Shown in pieces: positions 1,710 to 51,643 of a stretch of 64,000 nt of DNA. Position 1 is the first letter of the stretch; each line of letters starts with the position of its first letter. The translations under genes were made by a program, and so were the position numbers. This DNA is from Psilocybe cubensis (lineage: Eukaryota): the NCBI GenBank assembly GCA_017499595.2, contig CM039000.1, forward strand, positions 3,596,001-3,660,000, given 5' to 3'. The notes under the pieces are model-generated. The model saw nothing but the letters and a program-made list of their open reading frames with translations, was not told where the DNA came from and did not search any database.

Positions 1710-1890
1710 TGTTGTAAGTATAATGCGCAGTGGTGGTAAAAGATGTAGATTCACGACGTAGCTACACGGTTGTACCTACAGTAACTACGGAACCTATAGT
1801 AGAATAATCTAGAAAAAATATGATAAGATAAACTACAAGAGGAAGATAACGACTTAGCGACCAAGTCGCTCGCCGACTATCATTCCAACA
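1710..1890 (-). repeat. 3' LTR (181 bp)
   Basis: TGTTG...CAACA; identical to 6163-6343 by direct comparison. Confidence 0.97.
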
Positions 1891-1898
1891 CTCCCCCT
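1891..1898 (-). other. Polypurine tract
   Basis: Minus strand AGGGGGAG directly precedes the 3' LTR and overlaps the pol stop codon. Confidence 0.85.
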
Positions 1899-4800
1899 TA
1901 GTCGGCCAAAACTCCCAACTGCAACGTGAAACCATCGTGTGCAACGCGAGGTAAAGCCTTTGTGAAAACGTCTGCCAAATTGTTTGAAGTGTTGATGTAA
2001 ACCGTGTCGAGCGTCTTCTTCTCCACCAAGTCGCGTAGGAAATGAAATGCAATGTCAATGTGCTTCGTACGGGCATGGAATTCTGGATGATGCGCAATCG
2101 AAATGGCTGCCGTATTGTCGGTAAAGATGGTTGACGTTGATGGAATGTGGAAACCGAGCTCCGTGAAGAGTGAGCGGTGCCATAAGACTTGCTTCGCCGC
2201 ATGCGTTGTGGAAACGTATTCGGCTTCAGCGGTTGAAAGTGCGACCGTATTCTGTTTCTTCGAGCTCCATGCCACAGCGCCGCCTGCTATCGTAACCACG
2301 TATCCGCTAGTTGATTTCCGATCGTAGTTTTCAGCCCAATCGGCGTCGCAATAAACATTGAGATTTACGTCCAAAACTTGCGAATCGCCGCCGTAAGTAA
2401 GTTTGTGATTGCGCGTGCCCTTCAGATAACGAAATATACGTTTGACAGCGGTCCAATGAGTCGATTTCGGCTTGCTGGTGAATTGCGCGAGTTTGTATAC
2501 CGCAAACGCGATGTCTGGACGAGTTCCGAGTGCCAGATACATGAGCGAGCCGATGACCGTTGCATAACTGAATCCTAAACGCGAATTAACCTCCCCCTGA
2601 CCGTCTCCATCCTCCCGAACACCTTCATCCTTATCCAATCGCACGTTCGGGTCCATAGGCGTCGAAACGGGGTTCGCGTCTTGTAAACCAAACTTCTCGA
2701 GGAGTTTGTCGATGTAGTGTGCTTGCGAGAGCGAAATGTAATGGTCCTTTTGCTCGAGCTTGAATCCTAGCATCATCGAGGGCTGACCCATCGATTTAAC
2801 GTCGAATTTCGAGCCTAATTCTCGCTCCAGCTGGTCGTTGAGCGAGTCGTTTGTTGAGAAACTGATTATGTCGTCCACCCAGGTAACCAAAATCGTAAAA
2901 TCGCCGTTTTCAGCTCGACGGATGTAGCAGCAGTAATCGCTCTTGAGTTTCGTAAAACCGAATGAAGTGAGAGCGTTATCGAGTTCATGGTTCCATACGT
3001 TTCCTGCCTGCTTGAGACCGTAAAGCGAACGAATGAGACGGCATGCCTGACCAGTGCCATCGTCATAACCGGGTGGTTGGACCATATATATCTCCTCCGA
3101 GATGTAACCATGCAAATATGCACCCTTTATATCGAATTGACGCATCTTGAGATTGTGTACGGCCGAATATGCGAGTAGCGAGCGTAGCGTGTCGAATCGC
3201 ATGACTGGTGCGAATGTTCCGTCCTCGCTGTAGTCTGTACCAGGTCTCTGAGAGCATCCCTGAACGACTAGTCGGGCCTTGTACTTGATGACGTTCCCGT
3301 TTTCGTCCCGTTTCTTCGCGTAGACCCAACGGCATCCAACCAGTTTCCTTCCATCCGGAATCTTCATCATCTCCCAAGTACCCATCCGTAAAAGCGTCTC
3401 AATTTCTTCGTCCATAGCTGCCTTCCACGCAGCTGCCTCACAGCTTTCCAAAGCTTCTTCAAGTGTCCGAGGTACGTCCAATTCGCGCATGGCAAAGACA
3501 CGTTCCGAATCGTCTAAAATCGCGCCCCACAGCTGTTCTTTGACAATGTTTGCTTGCTCCGTTGCTGTAGACTTTGCGCTCGAGGTCTCGGTCGATTTTG
3601 TAGCGATTTGTGGTGCGTTTAGAGTCGTTTGGGATCGTGTAGTCGGTAAACGAGCATTCGGGTTGTTTGCCTTCTTGTAATCAACAAAATTGTGTTCACG
3701 AGCTGATCGACGTATGCTGGGCTGTGGAATCGATGCTGTAGACGAAATAGGTTCGTTCTTGACGGTTTCTGGCTCGTTTTCGCTGGATTTAACGTCTGTC
3801 GATTCGTTACGCTCCCCCTCAGACGATAATCCAGGAATTTCGACGTTCTGCGGCGTTTCGTTTTCGTTAAACGATACGTTTCGCGATGACTTCACTGTGC
3901 GCGATTTGGGATCGTAATAACGCACAGACTTCGAGCCTTCGTTAAAACCAACGAATACCATCTTCTTCGACCGTGGCTTGAGCTTCGAAAGCCCCTTCGT
4001 CTCGTCTAACACCCATACATCGCATCCGAACTCCCGAAGGTGAGAAACATCCGGTTTCTTGTTGTGCCAGCCTTCATATGGTGTCTTGTCGTCGAGTGCT
4101 CGAGTAGGCGCGCGGTTGCGTAAATAATTCGCGTAATTGACCGCCTCGTCCCAGAGAAAGAGAGGTAAATTCTTCGCAATAATCATCGCACGTGCTAGCT
4201 CCAACAGCGTACGATTGTAGCGCTCTGCGACGCCGTTCTGAGATGGGGAATATGGCGCCGTCGTCTCGATTTCAATGCCTCTCTCCGCCGCCCACTTCTT
4301 AATCCGCTCGTTCACGAGTTCCTTGCCATTGTCCATGCGAATGTACCTCGGATACTGCCCAAACCTCCTCTTCACTCGCTCCCCATGATTCTCAATCGCC
4401 TTCGCCGCCTCCTTCTTGTCCTTCAAGAAAACCACGCCGTTGTATCGCTTCGCGTCGTCCATAAACGTAATGTAGTAATAAAATCCATTTACCGAGCGTG
4501 TTCCGATAGGACCCCATACGTCGCTCATGGTTCGCTCTCCAGGAACCGTGGATCGATTTTCTGCTTCTCCAGGGAAAGGTTTATGCGTCTGCTTCGCTTG
4601 GATGCACGCCTCGCACGATGGGGATGGAATAGACGTTTCGTCCACGGAAAGACCGACGACAAGATCGTTCCGGACGAGTTTCTGCAACGACGACACTGAG
4701 ATATGGCCAAAACGACGATGCCATTGATCCCAGGTGAGTTTTGGCGAGACGTAGTTGACCTGTTCCCCTGAATTAAGCTGAGCGCGAGCGTGAAGAATAT

Positions 4801-6067
4801 ACATCTGACCGCGTTTCGACCCTTTTCCAATAACCTTATCCTTCGCATCCATCAAAAGAACCTTCCCATTCTTAAACGACGAGCTCCTCCCATCCCTCTC
4901 AAACCTTCCGAGCGACATCAAAGCATTTTCGGCTTCAGGGATGTGTAAAACGTCTTTCAAACGATGAGTAATCGTCTGCCCGTCGACATCGAAGTTGAGG
5001 ATGACTGTTCCGCGGCCTGCAATGATAGCTGGACTCTTTCCGACACCACGAACGGAGGAATTAACGAGTGGCGTATACTCGATGAAGGCTTCACGGACGG
5101 GACAAACGTGACTGGTGGTTGCAGAATCGTAAAGCCAGTCGTAACGAGAGAAGTTTGACGTCGAGTACGTGTGGTACGCAACCTCATCGTTGAGCGTAGT
5201 GTTGACGTCCTCCCGAGCCTGATTCGTCCGCCCTCTATTCTTCGTCTTCCGCCCCCTCGGACCCTTTCCTTCACGACCTCCGCCCTTCGCCCAGCAATCC
5301 TTCGAAATGTGCCCCATCTTGTGGCAATTATAGCACTCCTTCCCGCCGCTGCCATCCCTCGAACCATTACCCTTTCCATCCGACGACCCTTGACCTCCAC
5401 GAACTTGAAGCGTAGTCCCTCCGGCACCATCACCTCCACGCTCCTTCCGACGACGAGCTTCTTCAAGGAGAACACCAACGAGCTCTTGCGAAGTGAGCGT
5501 AGGACGATTCCCGCTCGAGCCCAAAAAGGATGACGCATAATTCTCCCAAGATTCCGGCAACGAGGTGAGCAAAATCATGACGAAATCTTCGTCCGATACA
5601 ATGCTGCCCATGATGTGCAGCTCCTCCTGGAATTGACGTAGCTTTGCGATATGCTCTGCCATGTCGCATCCCTCCTCTGCGGTTGCCCGGAAAAGTGCTC
5701 GTCGTGTCGCCAAAACACCGAGTCGTCCCTTGGATTCCTTCACTGTGCACAACTGCGTCCACATCTCGCGCGCCGTGCGCGCTCCCAGGACGTGTACCAT
5801 CTCCGCATCGCTTAACGCGAGTTCGATCCTGCATCGCGCTTTCGCATCTCCCTTATCCCACGCTGTCTGAGCTGCGATTTCTTCCGCCGTGGGTGCGTTC
5901 GGTTTCGCTGATCCTGGTCGAAGCGACGTGCCGTCCACGTATTTCTCCAGTCCGAGGTCCACCAGTACTGCTAGCATGCGCCGCTTCCACGGCATCCAAT
6001 TGTGGGCCTTCAGTGTGTCGATGCGATATCCGCCGATGTTGACTTCCGCGGTTGTCGAGTCAGCCAT
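1898..6067 (-). CDS. Copia Gag-Pol polyprotein, 1389 aa, uninterrupted
   Basis: Zinc knuckle CYNCHKMGHISKDC; protease WLYDSATTSH; integrase HHCC (WHRRFGH..CEAC) and DDE (SDVWGP, MDNGKE, NGVAERYNR); RT (KARLV, SLYGLKQ, WVDD); RNase H (YCDADWA, TAEAEY, TDN, LADVFTK). Confidence 0.97.
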   Translation of the reverse strand: MADSTTAEVNIGGYRIDTLKAHNWMPWKRRMLAVLVDLGLEKYVDGTSLRPGSAKPNAPTAEEIAAQTAWDKGDAKARCRIELALSDAEMVHVLGARTAREMWTQLCTVKESKGRLGVLATRRALFRATAEEGCDMAEHIAKLRQFQEELHIMGSIVSDEDFVMILLTSLPESWENYASSFLGSSGNRPTLTSQELVGVLLEEARRRKERGGDGAGGTTLQVRGGQGSSDGKGNGSRDGSGGKECYNCHKMGHISKDCWAKGGGREGKGPRGRKTKNRGRTNQAREDVNTTLNDEVAYHTYSTSNFSRYDWLYDSATTSHVCPVREAFIEYTPLVNSSVRGVGKSPAIIAGRGTVILNFDVDGQTITHRLKDVLHIPEAENALMSLGRFERDGRSSSFKNGKVLLMDAKDKVIGKGSKRGQMYILHARAQLNSGEQVNYVSPKLTWDQWHRRFGHISVSSLQKLVRNDLVVGLSVDETSIPSPSCEACIQAKQTHKPFPGEAENRSTVPGERTMSDVWGPIGTRSVNGFYYYITFMDDAKRYNGVVFLKDKKEAAKAIENHGERVKRRFGQYPRYIRMDNGKELVNERIKKWAAERGIEIETTAPYSPSQNGVAERYNRTLLELARAMIIAKNLPLFLWDEAVNYANYLRNRAPTRALDDKTPYEGWHNKKPDVSHLREFGCDVWVLDETKGLSKLKPRSKKMVFVGFNEGSKSVRYYDPKSRTVKSSRNVSFNENETPQNVEIPGLSSEGERNESTDVKSSENEPETVKNEPISSTASIPQPSIRRSAREHNFVDYKKANNPNARLPTTRSQTTLNAPQIATKSTETSSAKSTATEQANIVKEQLWGAILDDSERVFAMRELDVPRTLEEALESCEAAAWKAAMDEEIETLLRMGTWEMMKIPDGRKLVGCRWVYAKKRDENGNVIKYKARLVVQGCSQRPGTDYSEDGTFAPVMRFDTLRSLLAYSAVHNLKMRQFDIKGAYLHGYISEEIYMVQPPGYDDGTGQACRLIRSLYGLKQAGNVWNHELDNALTSFGFTKLKSDYCCYIRRAENGDFTILVTWVDDIISFSTNDSLNDQLERELGSKFDVKSMGQPSMMLGFKLEQKDHYISLSQAHYIDKLLEKFGLQDANPVSTPMDPNVRLDKDEGVREDGDGQGEVNSRLGFSYATVIGSLMYLALGTRPDIAFAVYKLAQFTSKPKSTHWTAVKRIFRYLKGTRNHKLTYGGDSQVLDVNLNVYCDADWAENYDRKSTSGYVVTIAGGAVAWSSKKQNTVALSTAEAEYVSTTHAAKQVLWHRSLFTELGFHIPSTSTIFTDNTAAISIAHHPEFHARTKHIDIAFHFLRDLVEKKTLDTVYINTSNNLADVFTKALPRVAHDGFTLQLGVLAD

Positions 6068-6150
6068 TTGACGTCGAGTACAAGTTTAGATATAGATCGA
6101 TAAGAATAGAACGAGTTTAGAACAAAGCGAGCTTTAGTTATGACCTCTCG

Positions 6151-6162
6151 GGGCCCATAACC
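6151..6162 (-). other. Primer binding site (initiator tRNA-Met anticodon-arm type)
   Basis: Minus strand GGTTATGGGCCC immediately follows the 5' LTR and is complementary to GGGCCCAUAACC, the eukaryotic tRNAi-Met anticodon stem-loop. Confidence 0.75.
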
Positions 6163-6343
6163 TGTTGTAAGTATAATGCGCAGTGGTGGTAAAAGATGTA
6201 GATTCACGACGTAGCTACACGGTTGTACCTACAGTAACTACGGAACCTATAGTAGAATAATCTAGAAAAAATATGATAAGATAAACTACAAGAGGAAGAT
6301 AACGACTTAGCGACCAAGTCGCTCGCCGACTATCATTCCAACA
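6163..6343 (-). repeat. 5' LTR (181 bp)
   Basis: Identical to 1710-1890. Confidence 0.97.
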
Positions 6344-7161
6344 GTTTGTCGCACAAGCCTCGAGAAGTAGGCGCCCATATCACGTCCGAACTCCGAATAA
6401 TCCGAATTCATGTAAACACCGAAAGCATGCCAGCACATCAGACAGAACTGACAACGCAAGCAAGAATTTCACCCCATGCACGGAATTTTTTCCCTGACGT
6501 TCCGAGGTGCGCAGTGGATGGAGGCAAGATCTACAACCAGTGTAGCACCCAGCTTATGCGAATCTCGGAGAAGTTCGGTGCGGTGAATACATCAAGGTGA
6601 ATTTCCTTCAAAAGGCACAAATAAACAGAATAAGAGGCGATGCTCTTCATGTGCGAACCAGGGATGAACCGAATGTCGAAGTTCGATACTATTGAAGCAG
6701 TTAAGAATGGCGTAAGACCCAATGCCACTATGTCAAAGCATTGAACCGAATGAAGCAAACTTCCCGAATAATTGATGAATCACTGGCGAGGAGCAAGTAG
6801 ATGTCAGCTAAATGAACATTGCAATAAGAGCAAGAGTACAAGGACGGGGATATGGTTCGAGTAAATACCACAACGGTGTCTTGACAGTGTCTGTTAGATT
6901 GATGTTGATATGCTCGGTTATTATCCCGGTTATCCCCGACCATATGTGTGATTTGCTTATCAAAACACGTGATCTGAACGCGTCGTGTCGAACGCGTTCA
7001 GACCTCCATCCGCCGCTTTGTCTCTTCAGAGACAAGTGCAACCCAAGCTTTGCTCCAAAGTCACAACAGCAAGCAACCTCAGATTCTAGCAATTCTAATC
7101 TAATAACCTGTTGCTTTCTGCATTTTTTATTATAAAATCATGGTTTTTAGTAAATCGCAAG

Positions 7162-41108: not shown

Positions 41109-42882
41109 ATGGAATCAATGTATACAGACAGCGAAACAGAAAAATGGCTCTTGACTGATCGTGGCTACTCATACATCATCCGTCAGTGTTTTTTAATTAG
41201 TTTGATGATTTTATCGATCGCTGATTTCCTGCGTCCTTTAGTTGCAAGTGCGGTTTGCGTTATTTATGATCATAGTAAGTGTTATGCATAGTGAAATTTC
41301 ATTTTTGGATCATTGACACTTAGTGGTACATTACAGTGCTAACGTTTCATGACGAAGTCAGTATTCAGTATCAGCCACAGTAAATGATTCGAATGTTGCT
41401 TACTGAATTCTTCAGGTGGAATACGTTTGGGTACATCCTGTTTGCTAAAATTCCTTGGGCATGGCTGATCCAAAACCGTGGTCGCCGTCTTTCAGAAGCG
41501 ACCAAAGCTTAGCGTGGTTCAAATCCTTTTCTTTATAGTGAATTGTGTTTTTGTATTATTCTTTGGGCTGCATGATAGAGAAACTAACTGCATCCAGAGT
41601 CGTTATGGTGGAGATGCACTACAGATGTAGACGTCTAGTTTTACTTTGAGCGTATCTATTCGGTCTGACCTTTACTCGTTTCAGATATCCTGCATACAGT
41701 ATGTAGATTCACTCGCCGATCAGAAGCAATCGAAATTGACCGTTTGCAGTAATTGTCCGCCATATTCTGGATGACACTGTTAAGGTACGCCTTTTATGAT
41801 ATGTTGCCATGTGTAGTCCATCCATTATTGGAAAATGTGACTCATACGAGTATGCAGGAGTTAGTGTACGGTCAATGAAGTTATCCATATATATTGACTC
41901 CCCCCTAGCTGTGAGTTTGCTTTCCGAGATTTCATCTGCCTCCTGAAATTGATGTTTTCTTTTAGGCAATTTTGTGCAAGTTTACATCGGATATCTCGGG
42001 ACTGTTATTCTATGCTCGACGCAAGGTATTTTTTCTCAAGGCCTACTCGATTCATATATTATTTGAACAGTTTTTAAATCTGATACAGGGATAATGATAT
42101 ACAGAGTGTCGTGCATGTACAGTCACAATCGGAAGATTATTATCATTCTGGCCACTGCCTTCATCAGTGAATTGACGTCCATGATCATCTCGCAGAGCAT
42201 AGCAAATAACATACACAACTGTAGGTACTTTTTTAACTTGATTAATCTTCGACATTAACGCTAATTCTGAATTTTTGCTCGTGGTTCCATGTCGTTCAGC
42301 TGTTCCAGACCCAGCTCCTGGCGTCCATATTTGCAAGCAAGATTCCTTTCCAACATGGGCATATTCTATCTGGATTCCAATTTTATTTCATGAGACCGTC
42401 CTTCTACTTCTGGCCACAGTAAAGGGCATCTCATACTACAAATCTGATACACGTGGGTTGTTGGATGACAACAATAACGACGGCTCTGCGGGTCATCACT
42501 CCCTCTTGTATATTCTTGTGCGAGATAGCATAACATTTCCCTTGATGTGAGTACGATTACTTCAAATCTAGTGGATCTCTCTGATATCATTGAATATCCA
42601 GTGGGCTTGTAGTTTGCATTCTCAACTTGATCTCATGGGCTGCTCTTCCTGTACGTAGATTGTCATTTTGTATCACTCACGTAAAACTAAGAAAGACCAT
42701 ACGGAATACAGTATCTGATTGCACAAATGACGTTCCCTTTTGCATTATTCATTCCTTGCATCCTAGGATCGCATTTAGTGATCAATTTGCGGGAGGCATA
42801 TTACCAACCATTCACCAAAGAGTGTGATATTCAATTTGTACATAATGAGAGTGGTGTTTCAATCGACTTCGATATGCCGTAA
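41109..42882 (+). CDS. Multi-exon polytopic membrane protein, DUF6533-like paralog 4
   Basis: KWLLTDR, SAVCVIYDH, LTFHDE, VEYVW, RDSITFPL, HLVINLREAYYQPFTKEC. Confidence 0.75.
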
Positions 42883-43069
42883 AAATGATTGTATTTACAT
42901 GTCATATAGAGAGCGTCAGACCAAAGTTGTTTTCTGATATAATTTTCTCCTCTTCGGATCGTTTAAGCTGGGCGTCTAAGACGCAACGACACCATCAGAG
43001 TCGTTGATCTATTTTTAGACCATCACAGTTAAAGACGCAGAGGACAGGTGGTTTGCGAAAAAAAATGGC

Positions 43070-43113
43070 GCGGACTGTCCGCCAGACTGTCCGCCGGACT
43101 GTCCGCCGGACTC
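43070..43113. repeat. Left subterminal array of 12-bp units C(G/A)GACTGTCCGC (3.5 copies)
   Basis: cggactgtccgc cagactgtccgc cggactgtccgc cggactc. Confidence 0.9.
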
Positions 43114-43445
43114 ATAGGCCTTTGGGTGGGCCTGTGTGACTTGGGTGAGTGACAGCCGTGCTCACTCTGCTCTACAGCGATCAGTGGCCTTCCCCGACAC
43201 ATTACCGCCCTCCGCCCCCCGCCCCCGACCTGGCCATGAGAATGCTAAGTGCCACTGGTTAATATTTTAATGGCACCCCGCCTCTCCTGTATTTTTCCGC
43301 CTTTTCCACCAGTTACTCCTGCGGTGTGCTACTTCCATAGACAAGGCCCGTTTAGGTAGTATTTATTGTAGCTGTTTTAGTAGACAATAGATGTAAAATG
43401 CTAATACAATTACATCGTTGAACAACTTCTAACCTTGCAACCATT

Positions 43446-45733
43446 ATGTCCTCTTCATCTAGTGCATATTCTTCATCTACTCTCCAATCAATCCTTCAAA
43501 TCCAAGCTAGTATTGCCAAATATTTGGACTTTGAAGGATGTTTGAAGTTCATTGAACTTATCCAACTCCTAAAGCCAACAATCTGTCTGTCACAACAACC
43601 AGGACTAGCAGAATCTGATGCGGGTGAAGACAAATGTCCAGCACGGTTGCGTCTGAACGTACACACTTTTCTCGCACAATCTTTAAGTGTCGATCATGAG
43701 GCTATGAAGATTATTTGGCGTGCAATGGCCAATATTGCGTGGAATTTTAGGGTTGATGAAAGCTGTGTTCATTCCTTTGGTCAACGTCATATTCAATGCT
43801 TTCTTGACTATGGAAGACAGAATGGCATAGGTGAGTTAGCATATATATCAAGCTAAAACCACTACTAATTCTAAAATCGGAGCCTTTTATCATCTAATGC
43901 CTCCTGTTCGTCATTGCCTTGATCCACGATGTGTTATCAAGCCCAAGACTTCTAAAAAGGATGAGCTCCATCGACGTCCACTGAAAGAAGCACATAGCCG
44001 TTCTGTTACTGTTTTTACACAATCATTTGGACCCATCCCGGGTATTTCTACTTCAATGTTTTGTTCGGGTATGTGTTTAGTATTGTTATTTTGTTGAAAC
44101 TCCCCCTTCTAACAATAATAAACGCAGGATGCCAAACTCGATACTACCCTAACTACTGGGTAGATAGAGCACAATCCACTCGGACATTTTACCGTATACA
44201 TCGCACCTTTCTGCATGTTACAGAAGGAATTTTTATGGACATTGCCACGTTGGAATTGTTTACGACAATGATGTTGACGTCTTGGTAGCTTCTTTCTTTT
44301 GTTGTGAATTTCTTCCATTAACTTGGAGTGTACAGGACTTCTGCTTCAAATTGTGCCCGCATCTATAATGAAGCAATAGCTTCAAAGTCCCTGTCATCCT
44401 CTCTTCCTGCAGCATATTCCAAAAGCATGGTGCTAGAACACAATGACGTATGGAATGGTCTTAGTCTCTTCTGGCTTCTTGAAGACTCGGAAGAAGAAGA
44501 TGAGGTCTTACAAATTGACCATGTAGCGCCTAGTCAAGCCATCCGCCTCAGAAAAGCCTTAAAGAGACGGAACCTTCGGATGGCAGGGACTGGTCAGGAA
44601 GCTTGGAACCATGTATGTGATTTATGCTGCTGGTATAATGATTTGCCCGATGGAACACAGAGTAAATTTTGAAAATTTATGATTCTAGTGATATATAACT
44701 CATGCTTGATTCTAGCTTTCCTTCGTTCTGTGGTTACTGATGGCATAACTATTGGACGGCCTACCTGCTCTATTCATGACTGCGATATTCCTTTGGATTC
44801 CGTCAAACATCGGTTCTGCCCTACACATAAAGATCAGAACCTTATCTGTGCGGTTACTAGCTGCTCAGCTCCCATTGATGAGGGCTATCAAACGTGCAGT
44901 CTGAAGGATCACCGAGCTCTTGAAGCATACAACGATATCCACAATAAAGCAATGTTTCAATTAAAACTTCGGCTTGCCCGTCTCAAAACCTCACAGCCCA
45001 CTGATGCCTTTTCCACTGATGATGGCCAGTCAACCATATTTGGCGATGAAGAGGTTTTGATTGACGCCAATGGTGTCTGTGACGAGAAGTCAGAGAAGGG
45101 TAATCAAACATTGCGAGCTCGGTTTGGAAGGCGACGCACTCATAATGAAGAGCTGTGTGTGGCATCGTGTGGTGTAATTCTTGGACGAGCAACATTCTAT
45201 GGTTCAGAGGCCCCAAACGGAGTACGGGTGCGTCATTTTTCTTGCTTCTAGAGAATTGTTGCTTATTTAATTTTCAGACATTTTGGAAGACTTTGTTTCC
45301 TACCCAAAAGTCTCTTCCAGGAGTTCTTTGGCACGACAATAACTGTCGAATTATGTTAATGCTTGAAAAGGAGAAAGACACGTACTTTTCCCACTCAGCA
45401 TTACCCGTTGACGTATTCCATTTCAAGTGTAAACATAAAGCTCAAGACGACAAATGTAATGCCAATTGTAACCCAGCAAAATGGCCCGAGCTTATGACGC
45501 CTGATGGGAAGTGGCGTTTTAACTCATCTGCAGCAGAACAAGCCAACGCTTGGCTAGGAGGGTATCAAGCCATTGTTCGTGAGATGCAGGCCGACAGATA
45601 TGAATTCTTTTTGGACGAGTTAATCAAGAGGCGAAATCGAAACATCATTAAGGATTTGGAGAAAAAAGGGAAAAATCCACATGAAATCCCAAGGGATTTT
45701 TTACTCAAGCCAGATACACCCAGAGTCGATTAG
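43446..45733 (+). CDS. KDZ-family transposase with CxC5 and CxC6 cysteine clusters, 6 exons
   Basis: CxC5-like PPVRHCLDPRC..TVFT..GPIP..SMFCS|GCQTRYYPNY; CxC6-like VVTDGITIGRPTCSIHDC..HRFCPTH..CAVTSC; catalytic-like HDNNC, LPVDVFHFKCKH, FNSSAAEQANAW. Confidence 0.85.
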
Positions 45734-46330
45734 TGATATGTAGGAAGTTGTAATAAAGAGCATTAGAAATCATGTTGGAACCTACATTAGTTGTTGTGAA
45801 CAAGCAGCAATCCGGGTTTAGTTGTTGCTCTGTGTCTTGAAAGCCTGCCGCTCGCACGATAACCCCGGCCCAGGGGTGATCCTTGGTGTTATCAAACAAG
45901 CGGCAGTTTTTCAAAACATGCATCCAGTATTGCCTCGCTACCCCACAACAATAAGCTGTAATAAGCTTTGCCACTGATGAAACTGAGAAACACATATGGG
46001 CACGGCGTCAACAAAGTGTGAAGTGTGAATGCCAGTTTATTGAAAGCTAGGGTGCTAACACTCGATCAATAACCAGACCCAGAACAAACGTGAATCAAAA
46101 ACATTGAAACTGAAGGCAGGAAATCGCATTAACATGCCGAAAACTCACCGCGTCATATATCAACCCATGCTGATCCCACACCTTGACTTGACTCGCAGCA
46201 CCTCCGCAACGCCCAACATCCTTCACACGCGCTGTTGTCACGCATGTCTACCACCTCATCCTCATCCTCCTTTCCTAAGTATTGATGCGCATACATGCTT
46301 CCGGGGTACATTGGCATTTCGTGTTCTACA

Positions 46331-47373
46331 TCACTCTGGCACACTGAGGTCGAGTTGAGAAACGTTCGTCCGGTTGATGAGAGAGATGAGGTTGTGGGGT
46401 TGTGGGCAGCATTGTGGAGACAATATTGAACGGGAGTCGCAAAAGGGAAGAGACCGATTCTGAATACCACTTTTGAGTTGTACAGAGAACAGGATTGCGC
46501 TGAGCTCTGAGTCCGTCGGCGTCCGCGTGAGCGCACCCATGACATCTGCGAGCTCGTTAATAAGTAGCCGCTTCTCCCCAATCCACCGAGTAACTCTGTC
46601 AGCGTCTATTAATTCCAACAGCTCAGGATCATCCTTCATTTGCTCGCGGGTCAGCATAATGCGATATGCAGCCTGTCCAGAATCCACCACATGATCCGTC
46701 GAACCAAGTTCCTTCAGCATTGCTGCTCGAGTGAGCGACTTGATACCATCGGCGGCTAATATGATATCAGCCTCGACTCGCACGGCTGGACCTACTAATG
46801 GCGTAGCCAAGAACGATGGCTTCCTGTCATCCCCGCCAAAATTCACTTCAGATACGGCAGTCGAGAAGTGAAAGGTAATGGCAGATTGTGCTTTGCAGCC
46901 TTCGTAAAGGCTCCCAGCGAGCGAGGCACGGTGTCCTACCATGTGAGCGTAGCCATATTTATCTTTGACGGAGTCGAACTCGACAAAGCCGAGCTCTTTG
47001 TCGGTTGTTCCCTCTGGGAAGATTTAAGCACATTGATTTACTATGTCAAGAACTGATATTACTTACGTCTGATGCTCGTGCTCTTGACTAAGACAGCCTC
47101 GGACTCGATCTTTTTCCAAACGCCGAGTTTATCGAGAATGCGTGCCATATTGGGGGCAAGTTGAATTCCTGCTCCTACAAAACCTAGGTTGGGCGCAGTT
47201 TCGTAGACATCGATATAGAGAAACCCTTCGTGTGCTAACGAGAGGGCACAAGTGAGGCCACCCATGCCTTGATACTAGCTATGAGTTCATCATGTGAGTC
47301 AACTAACCGGAGGAAGGAGCTCACCTGCTCCAAAGACCGCGACTCTCAACCGTCTGACGTCGTCGAAGGTCAT
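46331..47373 (-). pseudogene. Truncated FAD-dependent monooxygenase (salicylate hydroxylase-like), captured in the transposon
   Basis: VAVFGA|GMGGL Rossmann motif, GAGIQLAPN, HRA, ADIILAADGIKS. Recognisable similarity stops after RWIGEKR (~46568) and the GDAAH motif is absent. Confidence 0.8.
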
Positions 47374-48068
47374 CGTTATCAGACCTAGAGAAAGACACAA
47401 GACTCAGTGAACATGATGCATGAACGACTATGTTCCAATCTACCTAGAGAAAGACACGAGACTAGATAATAGTGTAGTTAGTGACTAGGCGAGAGGATGC
47501 TAAAGGGAGAGTGGAAACTTTACCTCAGTGAACATGATGCATGAACGACTGAGGGAAAGAGGGCCGATGGATTTATTGAGACGGAAGCTATGAGCGCAAT
47601 GAGCAGGTCATTCCTTGGGGAAGAGTGCTGTAGACATACCACAATTAAAAAACTCGCACTTGTTTCCGGCTACAAATACAAGCCAGAGCCCGTTGTCATC
47701 CAAAAAATTTCGATGGAGTGATTTGACGGACTTACAGCACGGATTTTGAGGTCGGGTCTTGCAGGGAGTCTTGACGTTGACGAGCGAGCTGTTCTACTCG
47801 CCTCTCAGTGACCGGGGGTTGTTGATGTGGTTTTGAGTATGTTGCCAGTGTATTTCCGTGCCCGAAAATTCCTGGTAACATACTCTCTGCCTCTTGGTTG
47901 GTGGAAACAGCGAACGGGTGTGTTGGGAGGTGTAAACGATGGATGTGCACACGGTCATGTGACTACACGCGCCCTCACGACTTCGTCAATTTCTGGGTCG
48001 TCGGATTGGCATTAACTGTAAATTTGTTCAATTGTAATATAAGTAATCGTTACAAAGTGCTACTGTAG

Positions 48069-50861
48069 CTACAGAGAATCAGGCTCTAAAGTCAAGTCAA
48101 TGATTTCCCAGGTACCAAAAGCAATGCCAGGATGAGCAGAAACATCCTGCTTGATAGGTTTTTGGCCTGGAGAATCCACGGTCAGGTCAATAATATCACC
48201 GCTGATAACAGCACGCTCTTTTCCTTTTGCAGAGCCAGTGAGGGTAATACTATCACTCTTCTCTTCTTTTATAGTAGGAGTAGATATTGCTGCATCCTTG
48301 GTGATAGCATGCTTGTCTTGCAAAAGTTGCATTACTTCTAGCATAGAAATCCGAAGATCTTCTTGAATGAGAAGTGTCACTGTTTCAGGAAAAAGCACCT
48401 CTTCAATAACTGAATCATAGGTGAGAGGCTGTAGAATTGACATATCTATGTCTTCTGAATCTTCAGGAAACATTTCTCTTAGCTCAGAAATAATAAGAGC
48501 TTGTATCTCTGGACCATAGCTTTGTAGAAGATACAAATTAGTAAATCTAGCCATCTAAGAGCAGTATAAAATTACTTACTAGGCAATGCAATCTAAAAGA
48601 AGTTGATTCTTTGATTTATCCGGAGTTTGACTGCAGCTAGCTTCAAAGGTTTTTCTGGAATTACAGAAAAACATGCTTTCTTCAGGGTCCATAAGAACGT
48701 AACAAAGTAATTCTTTATCACCCTGGATTTGATGACGGAGACTGGATATCTTTTCTTTGGTCAATAATCCACCATTGACATTAGACTGAGCTATATGAGG
48801 CAAGGAAATATGGGAAAGAGGGCTGACACGAGCACTAGGACTGATGTTTTCTGAAGAACTTGAGTCATCCAAGCTGTCTGAAGAGGAGGACTCAGAAAAG
48901 GTATCTGGAATATCCTGGGGGTTTTTTAAGGCAGCCTGTAATGACCTATATGTTGCCTGTTTCGAGTTGCCCATGTCCACAAAATAGCCAACAATATCTT
49001 TGTCATATGTTTTCCAATAAGATTTGTGTTCATAAAATGTGGATTTGTGAAAAGAAGCATCTGGAAAAGCAGCATAGAAAGCATCTTTGACACTTATACG
49101 AGATCTTGGACGAATAGATAATGCAGATTTCTTGGATGACTTCATATAAGGGTTGCTTCTAGAGGTTTGAGATTTGGATAGTGTTTCTTGCATTTGAAGA
49201 AATCCATTGTGAATTTGATAGACCTTGAAATCAAACGGCCACTGCTTTGTAGAGTTATGAGATTTCTTTAGAACCTTTGGTGGTGGTGGTAAGTTATGAG
49301 ATTTCTTTAGAACTTTTGGTGGTGGGGGTAAATCACTGTCTGATGAATTTGGGGTTCTATATCCATGTGGGCGCTTCTTCCTAGGAATATGGATATGATT
49401 TGATAAAATTGGACTAGCAGACCGATTTCTTGAGGTAGAATGTGTAATTGTTAGAGAAGATGCTTCCTGTATTGCAGATTGACGAATAGGCGACACTAAT
49501 GTGGTGTGTTGTTGGGCTAACAAAGCTTGTGATGTCTTTGGTTGTAGTTTGAGCTCATCTTCAATTCCAGGACAGTGCTCTAATGTTTCTCTAAGGCTTG
49601 GACGGATTTTTAAAATCAGTCTTTGGCCCTTTTCAACAGTAAGAACACTTTCCATGGTGAGAGTTACCCATTCTCCTTTCCAGTAATCCAGTTTGGTTGT
49701 TGGCTGAAGCTCCAAGTTTTTCATTAACTCAGCAGAGTCTGACAAGCGAAAATGGGGAAAGGATTGTATATAATATTCAAGCCTAATAGGAGGCTGTCCA
49801 TTCTAGAAGAATATTATTAACTGCTTGAATATAAACAAGAATATGAACTCACAGTGTGATATACAACCAAAATACATGTTCTTTTTCGTTGTTCATCCAT
49901 TTCATGTTGTTTAACTTTTAGAGATTTGAGGTTTCGGGTATGACTAAGTAATCCTGTTCGCTTTTGTGCCCATGTACCTCCTACAGGTTGAGCCAGGCCT
50001 CTTGGAATAACCTGTCCAAGTCCGAACTGAGTAGCAGGTGGTGTAGAAATAACCATATCCTGGTTTGGGGATTGATTTGGAGAGACCTGAGAAGCAGAAA
50101 TATTGAAAGGGCTCGGTGGTGGTGAGATAGAAATGTTTTGGGTAACAGATTGGGTAGAAAGAGGAGGAAGAGGAGGAGAATGAACTTGAGAGATTCTTTC
50201 TGGAGAAGCAGGAGTTGAAATATCAGGAGCATAAGGTACATTTTCGGGCTGGCGATGGGCATGACATGCCTTTCTAAAAGCTTGCTTAGAAATGGCATCT
50301 TTGCAAGCTTTGGTACAACAGGTCTTGCATTTATTTTCAATGCAAGTTCTACTCCCTTGAGTTCGGGTTCCTGACTTTGTAAAGCATGTAGAAACTGTGC
50401 AGAGTAGTTTATCTGATATTGGAATAGGAATAACACCAGTAGAGTTGGACTGAGCTCGTCTTTGTTGAGTCTGATTTGGCTGAGAAGAAGAATGATTGGC
50501 AGTGTTTGAAATGGAAATATAAGGTCTAAGAGTGCGAGGATAGCCCTGTGGATCATCAGGAAAATTAATTCGGTGCAAAAGACGTTGGGCATCCTCATAT
50601 ATATATGCAGGAGTATGATGATAGGTGTACAAACACCTATAATCAGAACACTAGACAATTAATTAGACTTGCACAATAAGCTAAGTTAATAACACATACA
50701 GTTTGACAGAGAGATCCTTTCAAATGCCTCTTGGAAGGAGATCCAGTAGCTTTGTATATAGCTATAGGTGGCATAGGTCTTCCACATGGGCGGTTGGATC
50801 TTCCTGGACAAAGACCAATAGGTGATATAGTAGGATCAGGAGGTAGGTTATCTGGGTTCAT
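48069..50861 (-). CDS. Transposon accessory protein: Cys clusters plus C-terminal RTC4-like domain, 4 exons
   Basis: Exons ~50861-50700, 50650-49853, 49802-48580 and 48522-48069 splice in frame. Contains C..C..CIENKCKTCC..C..CHAH, QWPFDF, and AY|YGPE...EEVLFPETVTLLIQEDL, which resembles RTC4 (GYYGP..VLVPE..LI.ED). Confidence 0.7.
49254..49331 (-). repeat. 39-bp in-frame tandem duplication (LPPPPKVLKKSHN x2)
   Basis: Two near-identical copies inside the accessory gene. Confidence 0.85.
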
Positions 50862-51255
50862 TGCTAAAACTATGCTCTAAAACTCAAGAACTTGTGCCAA
50901 ATTTATAGATTTTCGGTTGTCATATTACATATATCTCCCTATAGAGAGCTACATAGTATGTCAATGCAGAGATTTCTAGCTTTGGCGCTACAAAGCGCGT
51001 CTAAACACGAGTGGCTGCGTTGGGCCAGCCACAATATCCAAAAATGGAAAAGAAGCCGCAATAAGCCGGCCCAATTCTCACGTGTTTGGCAGTAGTGTCA
51101 AGTGGCAACAACAATGCGTGCGCCGTGTAGCGCATCAAGCGGCGGGGCATTGTTGGAAAGCATTGAGCTCGCTGCCTCGAACAGTGACCATGCAAGTGGG
51201 CCCCCGACGTGGCCCGGAGGTCACACTATGGTCACAAATACCCACGATACACCCA

Positions 51256-51287
51256 GAGTCCGGCGGACTGTCCGCCAGACTGTCCGC
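51256..51287. repeat. Right subterminal array of the same 12-bp unit
   Basis: gagtccgg cggactgtccgc cagactgtccgc. Confidence 0.9.
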
Positions 51288-51643
51288 GCGAAAAAAACTC
51301 GTGGACGAACCTTTCTGAAGACGCATTGCCAGCAATTACGTCAAGTGCTTTCATAGAATGAGTGAGGTTGTTTTCAAAGACCCTGGTTCACGATCAATTC
51401 AATAGGCAACAACGTGAGAAACTGAGTGAGTAAATAATGTGCATGTTCTTAGAGAAAGAGTCCTGATCATTGAGTACAAATACACCAGGTCGTCAAGACC
51501 TCAAAGAAGGAAAGAAAAGGAGATAAAAGAAAAAAACGAAAGTGGTTAGAATGTAGAAAGCCAACAAAAGAGTTCGAATAACAATGGAGTATAGGAAATT
51601 GGGTTGGAAAGAAGTAAAATTGGATTCCGGGAGGAAGTAGAGT

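Follow-up and report, generated by a model that had tools for sequence, protein, structure and literature searches.

Within the 64,000 nucleotides of Psilocybe cubensis considered here (contig CM039000.1 of assembly GCA_017499595.2, positions 3,596,001 to 3,660,000 of the forward strand; below, the window, numbered from its first letter), positions 43040–51317 very probably represent an 8.3-kb copy of a KDZ-type cut-and-paste DNA transposon, carrying about 1 kb of host sequence copied at the DNA level, namely, the 5′ half of a flavin adenine dinucleotide (FAD) monooxygenase gene. An earlier reading of this DNA, made from the letters alone (the sequence-only reading), had proposed Pack-type capture of such a gene half by a KDZ element. 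We followed up this proposal by comparing the fragment with its parent, by mapping public data sets onto the element, and by weighing other explanations.

The captured fragment and its parent gene

The captured piece and the chimeric open reading frame (ORF) that it opens are organized as follows, exons 1 and 2 being read in the window sequence.

46559–47590, minus strand: captured piece (at most 217 bp of 5′ flank, exons 1 and 2, both introns, 455 nt of exon 3)
47373–47325, minus strand: exon 1 of the fragment
47324–47268, minus strand: retained intron 1 (57 nt, GT..AG; X15 contig joint 47266 to 47324, cut +1)
47267–47067, minus strand: exon 2 of the fragment
47066–47014, minus strand: retained intron 2 (53 nt, GT..AG; X15 contig joint 47013 to 47067)
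47013 to the stop codon at 46333–46331, minus strand: exon 3 of the fragment with the tail (open frame)
46331–46558, minus strand: tail of the chimeric ORF (76 codons and the stop; no homology past RWIGEKRLLI)

The start codon (ATG 47373, minus strand), the two introns, the open frame, the GxGxxG and DG motifs, and the stop codon (46333–46331) are all present, as the sequence-only reading had described them. The product begins with MTFDDVRRLRVAVFGAGMGGL, where the GxGxxG motif reads GAGMGGL, holds the DG motif as AADGIKS, and extends to RWIGEKRLLI; the chimeric ORF of 309 codons comprises the N-terminal half of a salicylate-hydroxylase-like FAD monooxygenase. The GD motif half is absent from the product, in agreement with the earlier statement that it is missing: the Pfam domain FAD_binding_3 spans only profile positions 13–183 of 349 in P0121, the NCBI model (P. 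cubensis, 293 aa) that matches the exon-3 ORF with 100% identity and 100% coverage, versus positions 2–348 of 349 in the parent protein P0001. The same model supports the splicing of intron 2 (SIRQ joined to GTTDKE). A complete domain of the group A flavoprotein monooxygenases combines GxGxxG, DG, and GD; judged by its motifs and profile coverage, the product is only a piece of such an enzyme and does not count as a functional member. The public annotation label of the fragment, “FAD-dependent monooxygenase OpS4,” calls for caution, as it denotes half an enzyme within a transposon.

The homology ends within an exon, after RWIGEKRLLI, between positions 46559 and 46558, and there is no GT donor at the break. 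The sequence-only reading had placed a frame switch after RWIGEKR (~46568); the switch without a splice donor is seen, and its position has to be moved to 46559/46558. The 3′ break of the captured piece at 46559 is firm; the 5′ limit falls between 47378 and 47590. The tail (46331–46558) can be read without a stop in each of the three minus-strand frames, which reflects base composition, so that its openness is not evidence of coding.

The parent was sought among longer proteins, the best 120 of 506 matches being listed. The top match among those listed is P0001, a P. cubensis model of 1259 aa, which shares 233 out of 235 residues with the fragment product as far as I235. Beyond this residue, P0001 reads AYPIDNKRIY (residues 236–245) and the window reads NELADVMG; all other full-length homologues likewise cease to align at the same point. 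Residues 1–445 of P0001 form a complete monooxygenase. The full-length parent elsewhere, anticipated from the letters alone, has thus been found, and the downstream exons that could have restored a complete enzyme at this locus have not: tblastn of P0001 against the 64-kb window did not find residues 236–1259 anywhere. P0001 is listed on a contig of 3,335,923 bases, and P0121, on a contig of 3,675,134 bases.

The best full-length relative of the parent among the proteins fetched is P0080 from Psilocybe cf. subviscida (66% over 444 aa), and judging from the protein comparison the parent is an ordinary resident gene. High-ranking Dothideomycete matches prompted us to consider horizontal transfer of the parent gene, which was rejected, as the best full-length match is this Psilocybe protein. 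The annotation of P0001 joins the monooxygenase to a fungal-specific transcription factor (Fungal_trans, residues 715–968); this fusion probably consists of two adjacent genes merged by annotation.

Four public data sets were mapped onto window positions 42000–53000, namely, X1 (contigs, possibly from the source of the window), X9 (contigs under another organism label), X13 (raw Illumina DNA reads), and X15 (contigs guessed to be RNA; they are spliced). The X15 contigs are spliced exactly at 47014–47066 and 47268–47324, carry parent-type letters, and leave the window sequence at 46559, with a continuation translating to AYPIDNKRIY of P0001. Because the parent contigs are spliced exactly there, the two introns are genuine parent introns kept in the element copy, and the earlier argument for DNA-level capture rather than retroposition, based on intron retention, gains direct support. 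The X15 contigs that match the fragment derive from the parent, and none represents the chimeric ORF; this is not evidence of silence.

The carrier element, its ends and mobility

The boundaries and ends of the element are listed below; none of these features is assigned a strand.

43032–43039: left copy of the target-site duplication, 8 bp, AAGACGCA (read in the window; the joint shares 8 letters)
43040–51317: mobile element, 8,278 bp (empty site, mixed flanks, depth)
43068–43113: left subterminal repeats, the 12-bp unit CGGACTGTCCGC repeated 3.5 times, and one arm of a 33-nt inverted repeat
51256–51289: subterminal repeats of the right end, with the second arm of the inverted repeat (repeat search)
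51318–51325: right copy of the target-site duplication, 8 bp, AAGACGCA (read in the window)

The empty site joins position 43031 to 51318, skipping 8286 bp with 8 shared letters, and this joint is carried by one X9 contig of 10,671 nt spanning both flanks and by 31 X13 reads. Because of the joint and of AAGACGCA on both sides, positions 43040–51317 are an insertion with an 8-bp duplication. The insertion is polymorphic, with empty alleles in existence, and the placement of the fragment within a mobile element, suggested by the sequence-only reading, is confirmed in both X9 and X13, the duplication being readable in the window itself. Loose ends occur at both tips: 179 X13 reads leave the element at 43040, with an agreement of 0.42, and 120 do so at 51317, with an agreement of 0.5. 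This low agreement implies that the element copies have many different flanks.

Both ends bear 12-bp repeats, and the arms of the 33-nt inverted repeat (85% complementary) each lie 28 nt inside the respective tip. End-only derivatives are found as joints from 43091 to 51120 (15 X13 reads, 4 filler letters) and from 43219 to 51292 (9 X13 reads, 6 filler letters). MITE-like (miniature inverted-repeat transposable element) derivatives of this element’s family appear to be numerous. The element ends (43040–43113 and 51120–51317) are several-fold deeper than the body (246 versus 39 in X1 at 43066), and one short end-to-end joint sits in a transcript-like X15 contig (record 9).

In X1, the word depth, which is a rough guide and not a copy number, is 39.3 and 38.6 within the element versus 10.2 and 8.9 in the flanks. 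The raw-read depth in X13 is ~65–69 in the element versus ~37 in the flanks, and the depth in X9 is lower in the element (~6–9.5) than in the flanks (12.5). The copy number of the element is above one and variable, X1, X13, and X9 being in agreement; self-comparison of the window revealed neither the element nor the fragment a second time within the 64 kb.

The X1 unitigs 43040–46488, 46459–46588, 46559–47590, 47561–47788, and 47759–51317 form a chain without joints. The depth of the unitig 46559–47590 (record 4) is 46.6, compared to 39.3 and 38.6 beside it; it exceeds the element depth by about one single-copy unit, and hence the fragment appears to travel in all element copies. Parent-type letters account for about one third of the X13 reads (39 out of 93 at 46700, 27 out of 82 at 46880, and 28 out of 77 at 46999), and X9 has window-type contigs (depth ~7.8) alongside parent-type contigs. 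A piece of a host gene has been captured, its carrier moves, and the piece has been amplified. Whether the element is present, and in how many copies, varies from one mapped Psilocybe data set to another; it may still be active and is a possible strain marker.

Genes of the element and its probable KDZ affiliation

43446–45733, plus strand: element gene 1, CxC5/CxC6 KDZ-associated (putative transposase), several introns (mapping of P0241)
48069–50650, minus strand: element gene 2, weak RTC4-like C-terminal domain (E 4.8e-5; 23.9 bits versus the cut-off of 23.7)

The fragment is flanked by these two genes, as previously proposed. The protein P0241 (673 aa, JR316_0005680, P. cubensis) maps to 43446–43832, 43882–44070, 44124–45230, and 45269–45730, and Pfam identifies in it the domains CxC5 (E 2.5e-30) and CxC6 (E 2.8e-26); CxC6 is also identified in the window ORF 44673–45251 of the plus strand (E 3.6e-27). 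The Pfam descriptions of both domains link them to KDZ transposases, and the CxC5/CxC6 family of gene 1 is widespread in Agaricomycetes. In gene 2, no other Pfam family was found, and Atlas gave only a 0.85 match without a family. A Pfam search did not find a TET/JBP domain in the element. The features expected of a KDZ element that we observe here are a CxCn domain, an 8-bp target-site duplication, and mobility, seen as filled and empty sites and several flanks.

Other segments between the two element genes

46135–46452, minus strand: piece with a relative elsewhere, possible second foreign segment (P0361, 77–78% at the protein level)
47383–47550, minus strand: duplicated 5′-leader segment (27-nt and 20-nt blocks, each present twice)

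According to the sequence-only reading, 45750–46560 and 47600–48050 might be further captured fragments. The protein P0361 (138 aa), in which Pfam finds no family, is the sole match for 46135–46452 among 1.84 billion representatives. The X13 depth is elevated across 46037–47871, and single contigs diverge at 45895, at 46021, and at 47759–47832. The intergenic region fits a mosaic of foreign pieces, and these data suggest relatives of 46021–46558 and 47759–47832. The earlier expectation is thereby supported in part, by the relative of 46135–46452 and by the depth and loose ends for 46021–46558 and 47759–47832; no donor was identified.

In the leader copy 47550–47442, the two blocks are separated by a 62-nt GT..CTAAC..AG segment (47523–47462), and in the copy 47429–47383 they abut directly, exactly without this segment, so that the duplication looks as if a spliced copy had been placed beside an unspliced one. 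Two exon-like ORFs starting with ATG have the same orientation as the monooxygenase fragment, one at 47735–47879 (minus strand), ending at a GTAAGT donor, and the other at 46150–46322 (minus strand), ending at a GTGAGT donor; each might represent the first exon of a further captured gene.

Origin of the fragment and alternative explanations

In the preferred reading, the uptake of the 5′ half of a host monooxygenase gene by a KDZ-type element, the host piece would have entered as filler during the repair of a double-strand gap in one element copy, with an ectopic sequence serving as the template, and it would then have been amplified passively along with the element; the chimeric ORF, lacking the GD/C-terminal half, would most likely be a non-functional by-product. 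Gap repair is proposed because the same mechanism has been proposed for Pack-MULE and CACTA captures, and the internal deletions with filler letters seen in this element family agree with it indirectly.

Several observations weigh against this interpretation. Neither the window ORFs nor P0241 give a Pfam match to the KDZ transposase domain proper, PF18758, even when E values of up to 5 are admitted, and none of the 120 listed homologues of P0241 (0 out of 120) carries it. Atlas provides leads only, namely, a structure row aligning P0241 residues 461–654 with PF18758, and feature matches including clusters in which 27% of the members bear PF18758. The two ends do not match as inverted copies over their outermost 28 nt. 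Parent-type letters are absent from X1, the parent being deduced there from excess depth and unitig breaks only, and the short unitig 46459–46588, with a depth of 51.6, is not explained by a simple two-source model. The 5′ limit of the captured piece is inconsistent, as the X1 unitig reaches 47590, whereas an X15 RNA contig (from another strain) diverges at 47378. The parent is seen as a protein, in reads, and in RNA contigs, and not as an assembled DNA locus; its location on another contig comes from the contig listings of P0001 and P0121, possibly from different assemblies. Finally, gap repair itself is a mechanism that we infer.

We nevertheless consider it highly improbable that the window holds a native monooxygenase locus broken by insertion or rearrangement, with its 3′ half outside the window or deleted. 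The lack of the 3′ half in the 64 kb and of parent-type letters in X1 would agree with a broken locus, but the empty allele loses the fragment together with both element genes, keeping one copy of the 8-bp duplication, the depth of the fragment is that of the element and not single-copy, P0001 and P0121 are listed on contigs of different length, and both X9 and X13 contain parent-type letters alongside window-type ones. It is also unlikely, in our estimate, that the fragment was brought by a separate small non-autonomous element (~45894–47665) nested in the KDZ element, which would make it a passenger of a passenger. A 21-nt inverted repeat (81%) does pair 45894–45914 with 47645–47665, with one X1 contig diverging exactly at 45895 and a variant joint from 47616 to 47695 (X9 and 8 X13 reads) at the other arm, and the mosaic look of the intergenic region would suit such nesting. 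However, no target-site duplication is found beside the arms, no independent copies are seen, an imperfect 21-nt repeat within 2.4 kb may arise by chance, and the X1 unitig 43040–46488 crosses 45894 unbroken at the element depth.

The chimeric ORF or its RNA might have been put to use, as a truncated FAD-binding protein or as an antisense or small RNA regulating the parent; as much as 217 bp of the captured piece may be 5′ leader or promoter, no stop interrupts the frame for 76 codons past the break, the ORF is annotated as a gene (P0121), and several identical copies exist. Nonetheless, we regard such a use as distinctly unlikely, given that the mapped RNA contigs carry only parent-type letters and parent continuations, that the tail is open in all three frames owing to base composition, and that half of the FAD_binding_3 domain is missing. 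A more far-reaching scenario, to which we assign a low probability, is an active “Pack-KDZ” that would join 5′ ends (leaders and first exons) of two to three host genes (~47879–47735, the monooxygenase, and ~46322–46150), with the intron-less leader duplicate pointing to an RNA or cDNA repair template, and with transcripts of the copies silencing the parent.

Relation to known systems

In plants, Pack-MULEs and Pack-CACTA elements capture pieces of host genes at the DNA level, with introns kept; the captured pieces lie between the element ends, multiply along with the element, and in many cases give rise to chimeric ORFs. These elements are non-autonomous, encode no transposase, belong to the Mutator or CACTA superfamilies, and produce 9-bp or 3-bp duplications. 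The element described here differs from them in keeping its own two genes, in being of the KDZ kind, and in its 8-bp duplication. The term “Pack-type,” used in the sequence-only reading, is therefore apt as regards the host fragment between the ends, the parent elsewhere, and the kept introns, and inapt as regards the carrier, which is not non-autonomous, as its 673-aa CxC5/CxC6 gene is still there, apparently intact, and so is a second gene. The carrier works like a Pack element and is not one in the strict sense.

Among KDZ elements, a close comparison is offered by KDZ1, KDZ2, KDZ3, and KDZx1 from Cryptococcus, large DNA transposons that are reported to be 6.4–10.9 kb long, have 8-bp duplications, encode a CxCn-bearing KDZ protein, and are mobile within the species (PMC11588098). 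They also contain extra ORFs without known domains and without an identified host parent (PMC11588098). The present element resembles them in its size, 8-bp duplication, and extra ORFs; in contrast to KDZ1, with its terminal inverted repeat of 236 bp, it has only 33-nt subterminal inverted repeats (PMC11588098), and its passenger, unlike those of the Cryptococcus elements, is a fragment that is dated and can be traced to a parent gene in the host.

Work on related fungal elements gives 8-bp duplications for Zisupton and Dileera, and 7-bp duplications with CA..TG ends for Kyakuja, and hence the 8-bp duplication seen here fits Zisupton/Dileera and not Kyakuja (PMC12730594). Fungal Kyakuja, Zisupton, and Dileera elements carry TET/JBP passenger genes, each a complete conserved enzyme thought, in the same work, to serve the element (PMC12730594), whereas the passenger here was copied recently, and in truncated form, from a metabolic gene.

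Fungal DNA transposons that copy and multiply host genes or fragments of them are exemplified by hAT transduplication in Pyrenophora tritici-repentis (PMC3538342, PMC6710886) and by Helitron capture in Pleurotus ostreatus (PMC4289320). These cases involve other superfamilies, with a different mechanism for Helitrons, and none concerns KDZ elements. We found no report of a KDZ element with a metabolic host gene fragment in the literature covered, to which the founding study by Iyer et al. did not belong. That transposons capture parts of host genes is already well known, fungi included, so that the present case is clear and not unprecedented. With its parent, breakpoint, empty site, and copy number, it provides a clean, datable example, very likely showing that KDZ-type transposons of mushrooms acquire parts of ordinary host genes and multiply them; the documented KDZ passengers have until now been TET/JBP genes.

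Surroundings of the element

The window also contains an apparently intact Copia-type long terminal repeat (LTR) retrotransposon at 1710–6343. It has one gag-pol ORF of 1395 codons (1901–6085, minus strand) with RVT_2, rve, and gag domains, two identical 181-bp LTRs with TG..CA ends, and a 5-bp duplication, GTTTG, at 1705–1709 and 6344–6348; from these features, it looks like a recent insertion. Two sets of plus-strand ORFs, 39932–40537 and 42067–42882, encode similar hydrophobic proteins (…YRVS.MY.H.RKII.ILA…) and are probably a tandem pair from a membrane-protein family. The KDZ element is inserted between the second of these sets (42067–42882) and an expressed minus-strand gene at 51443–53000.

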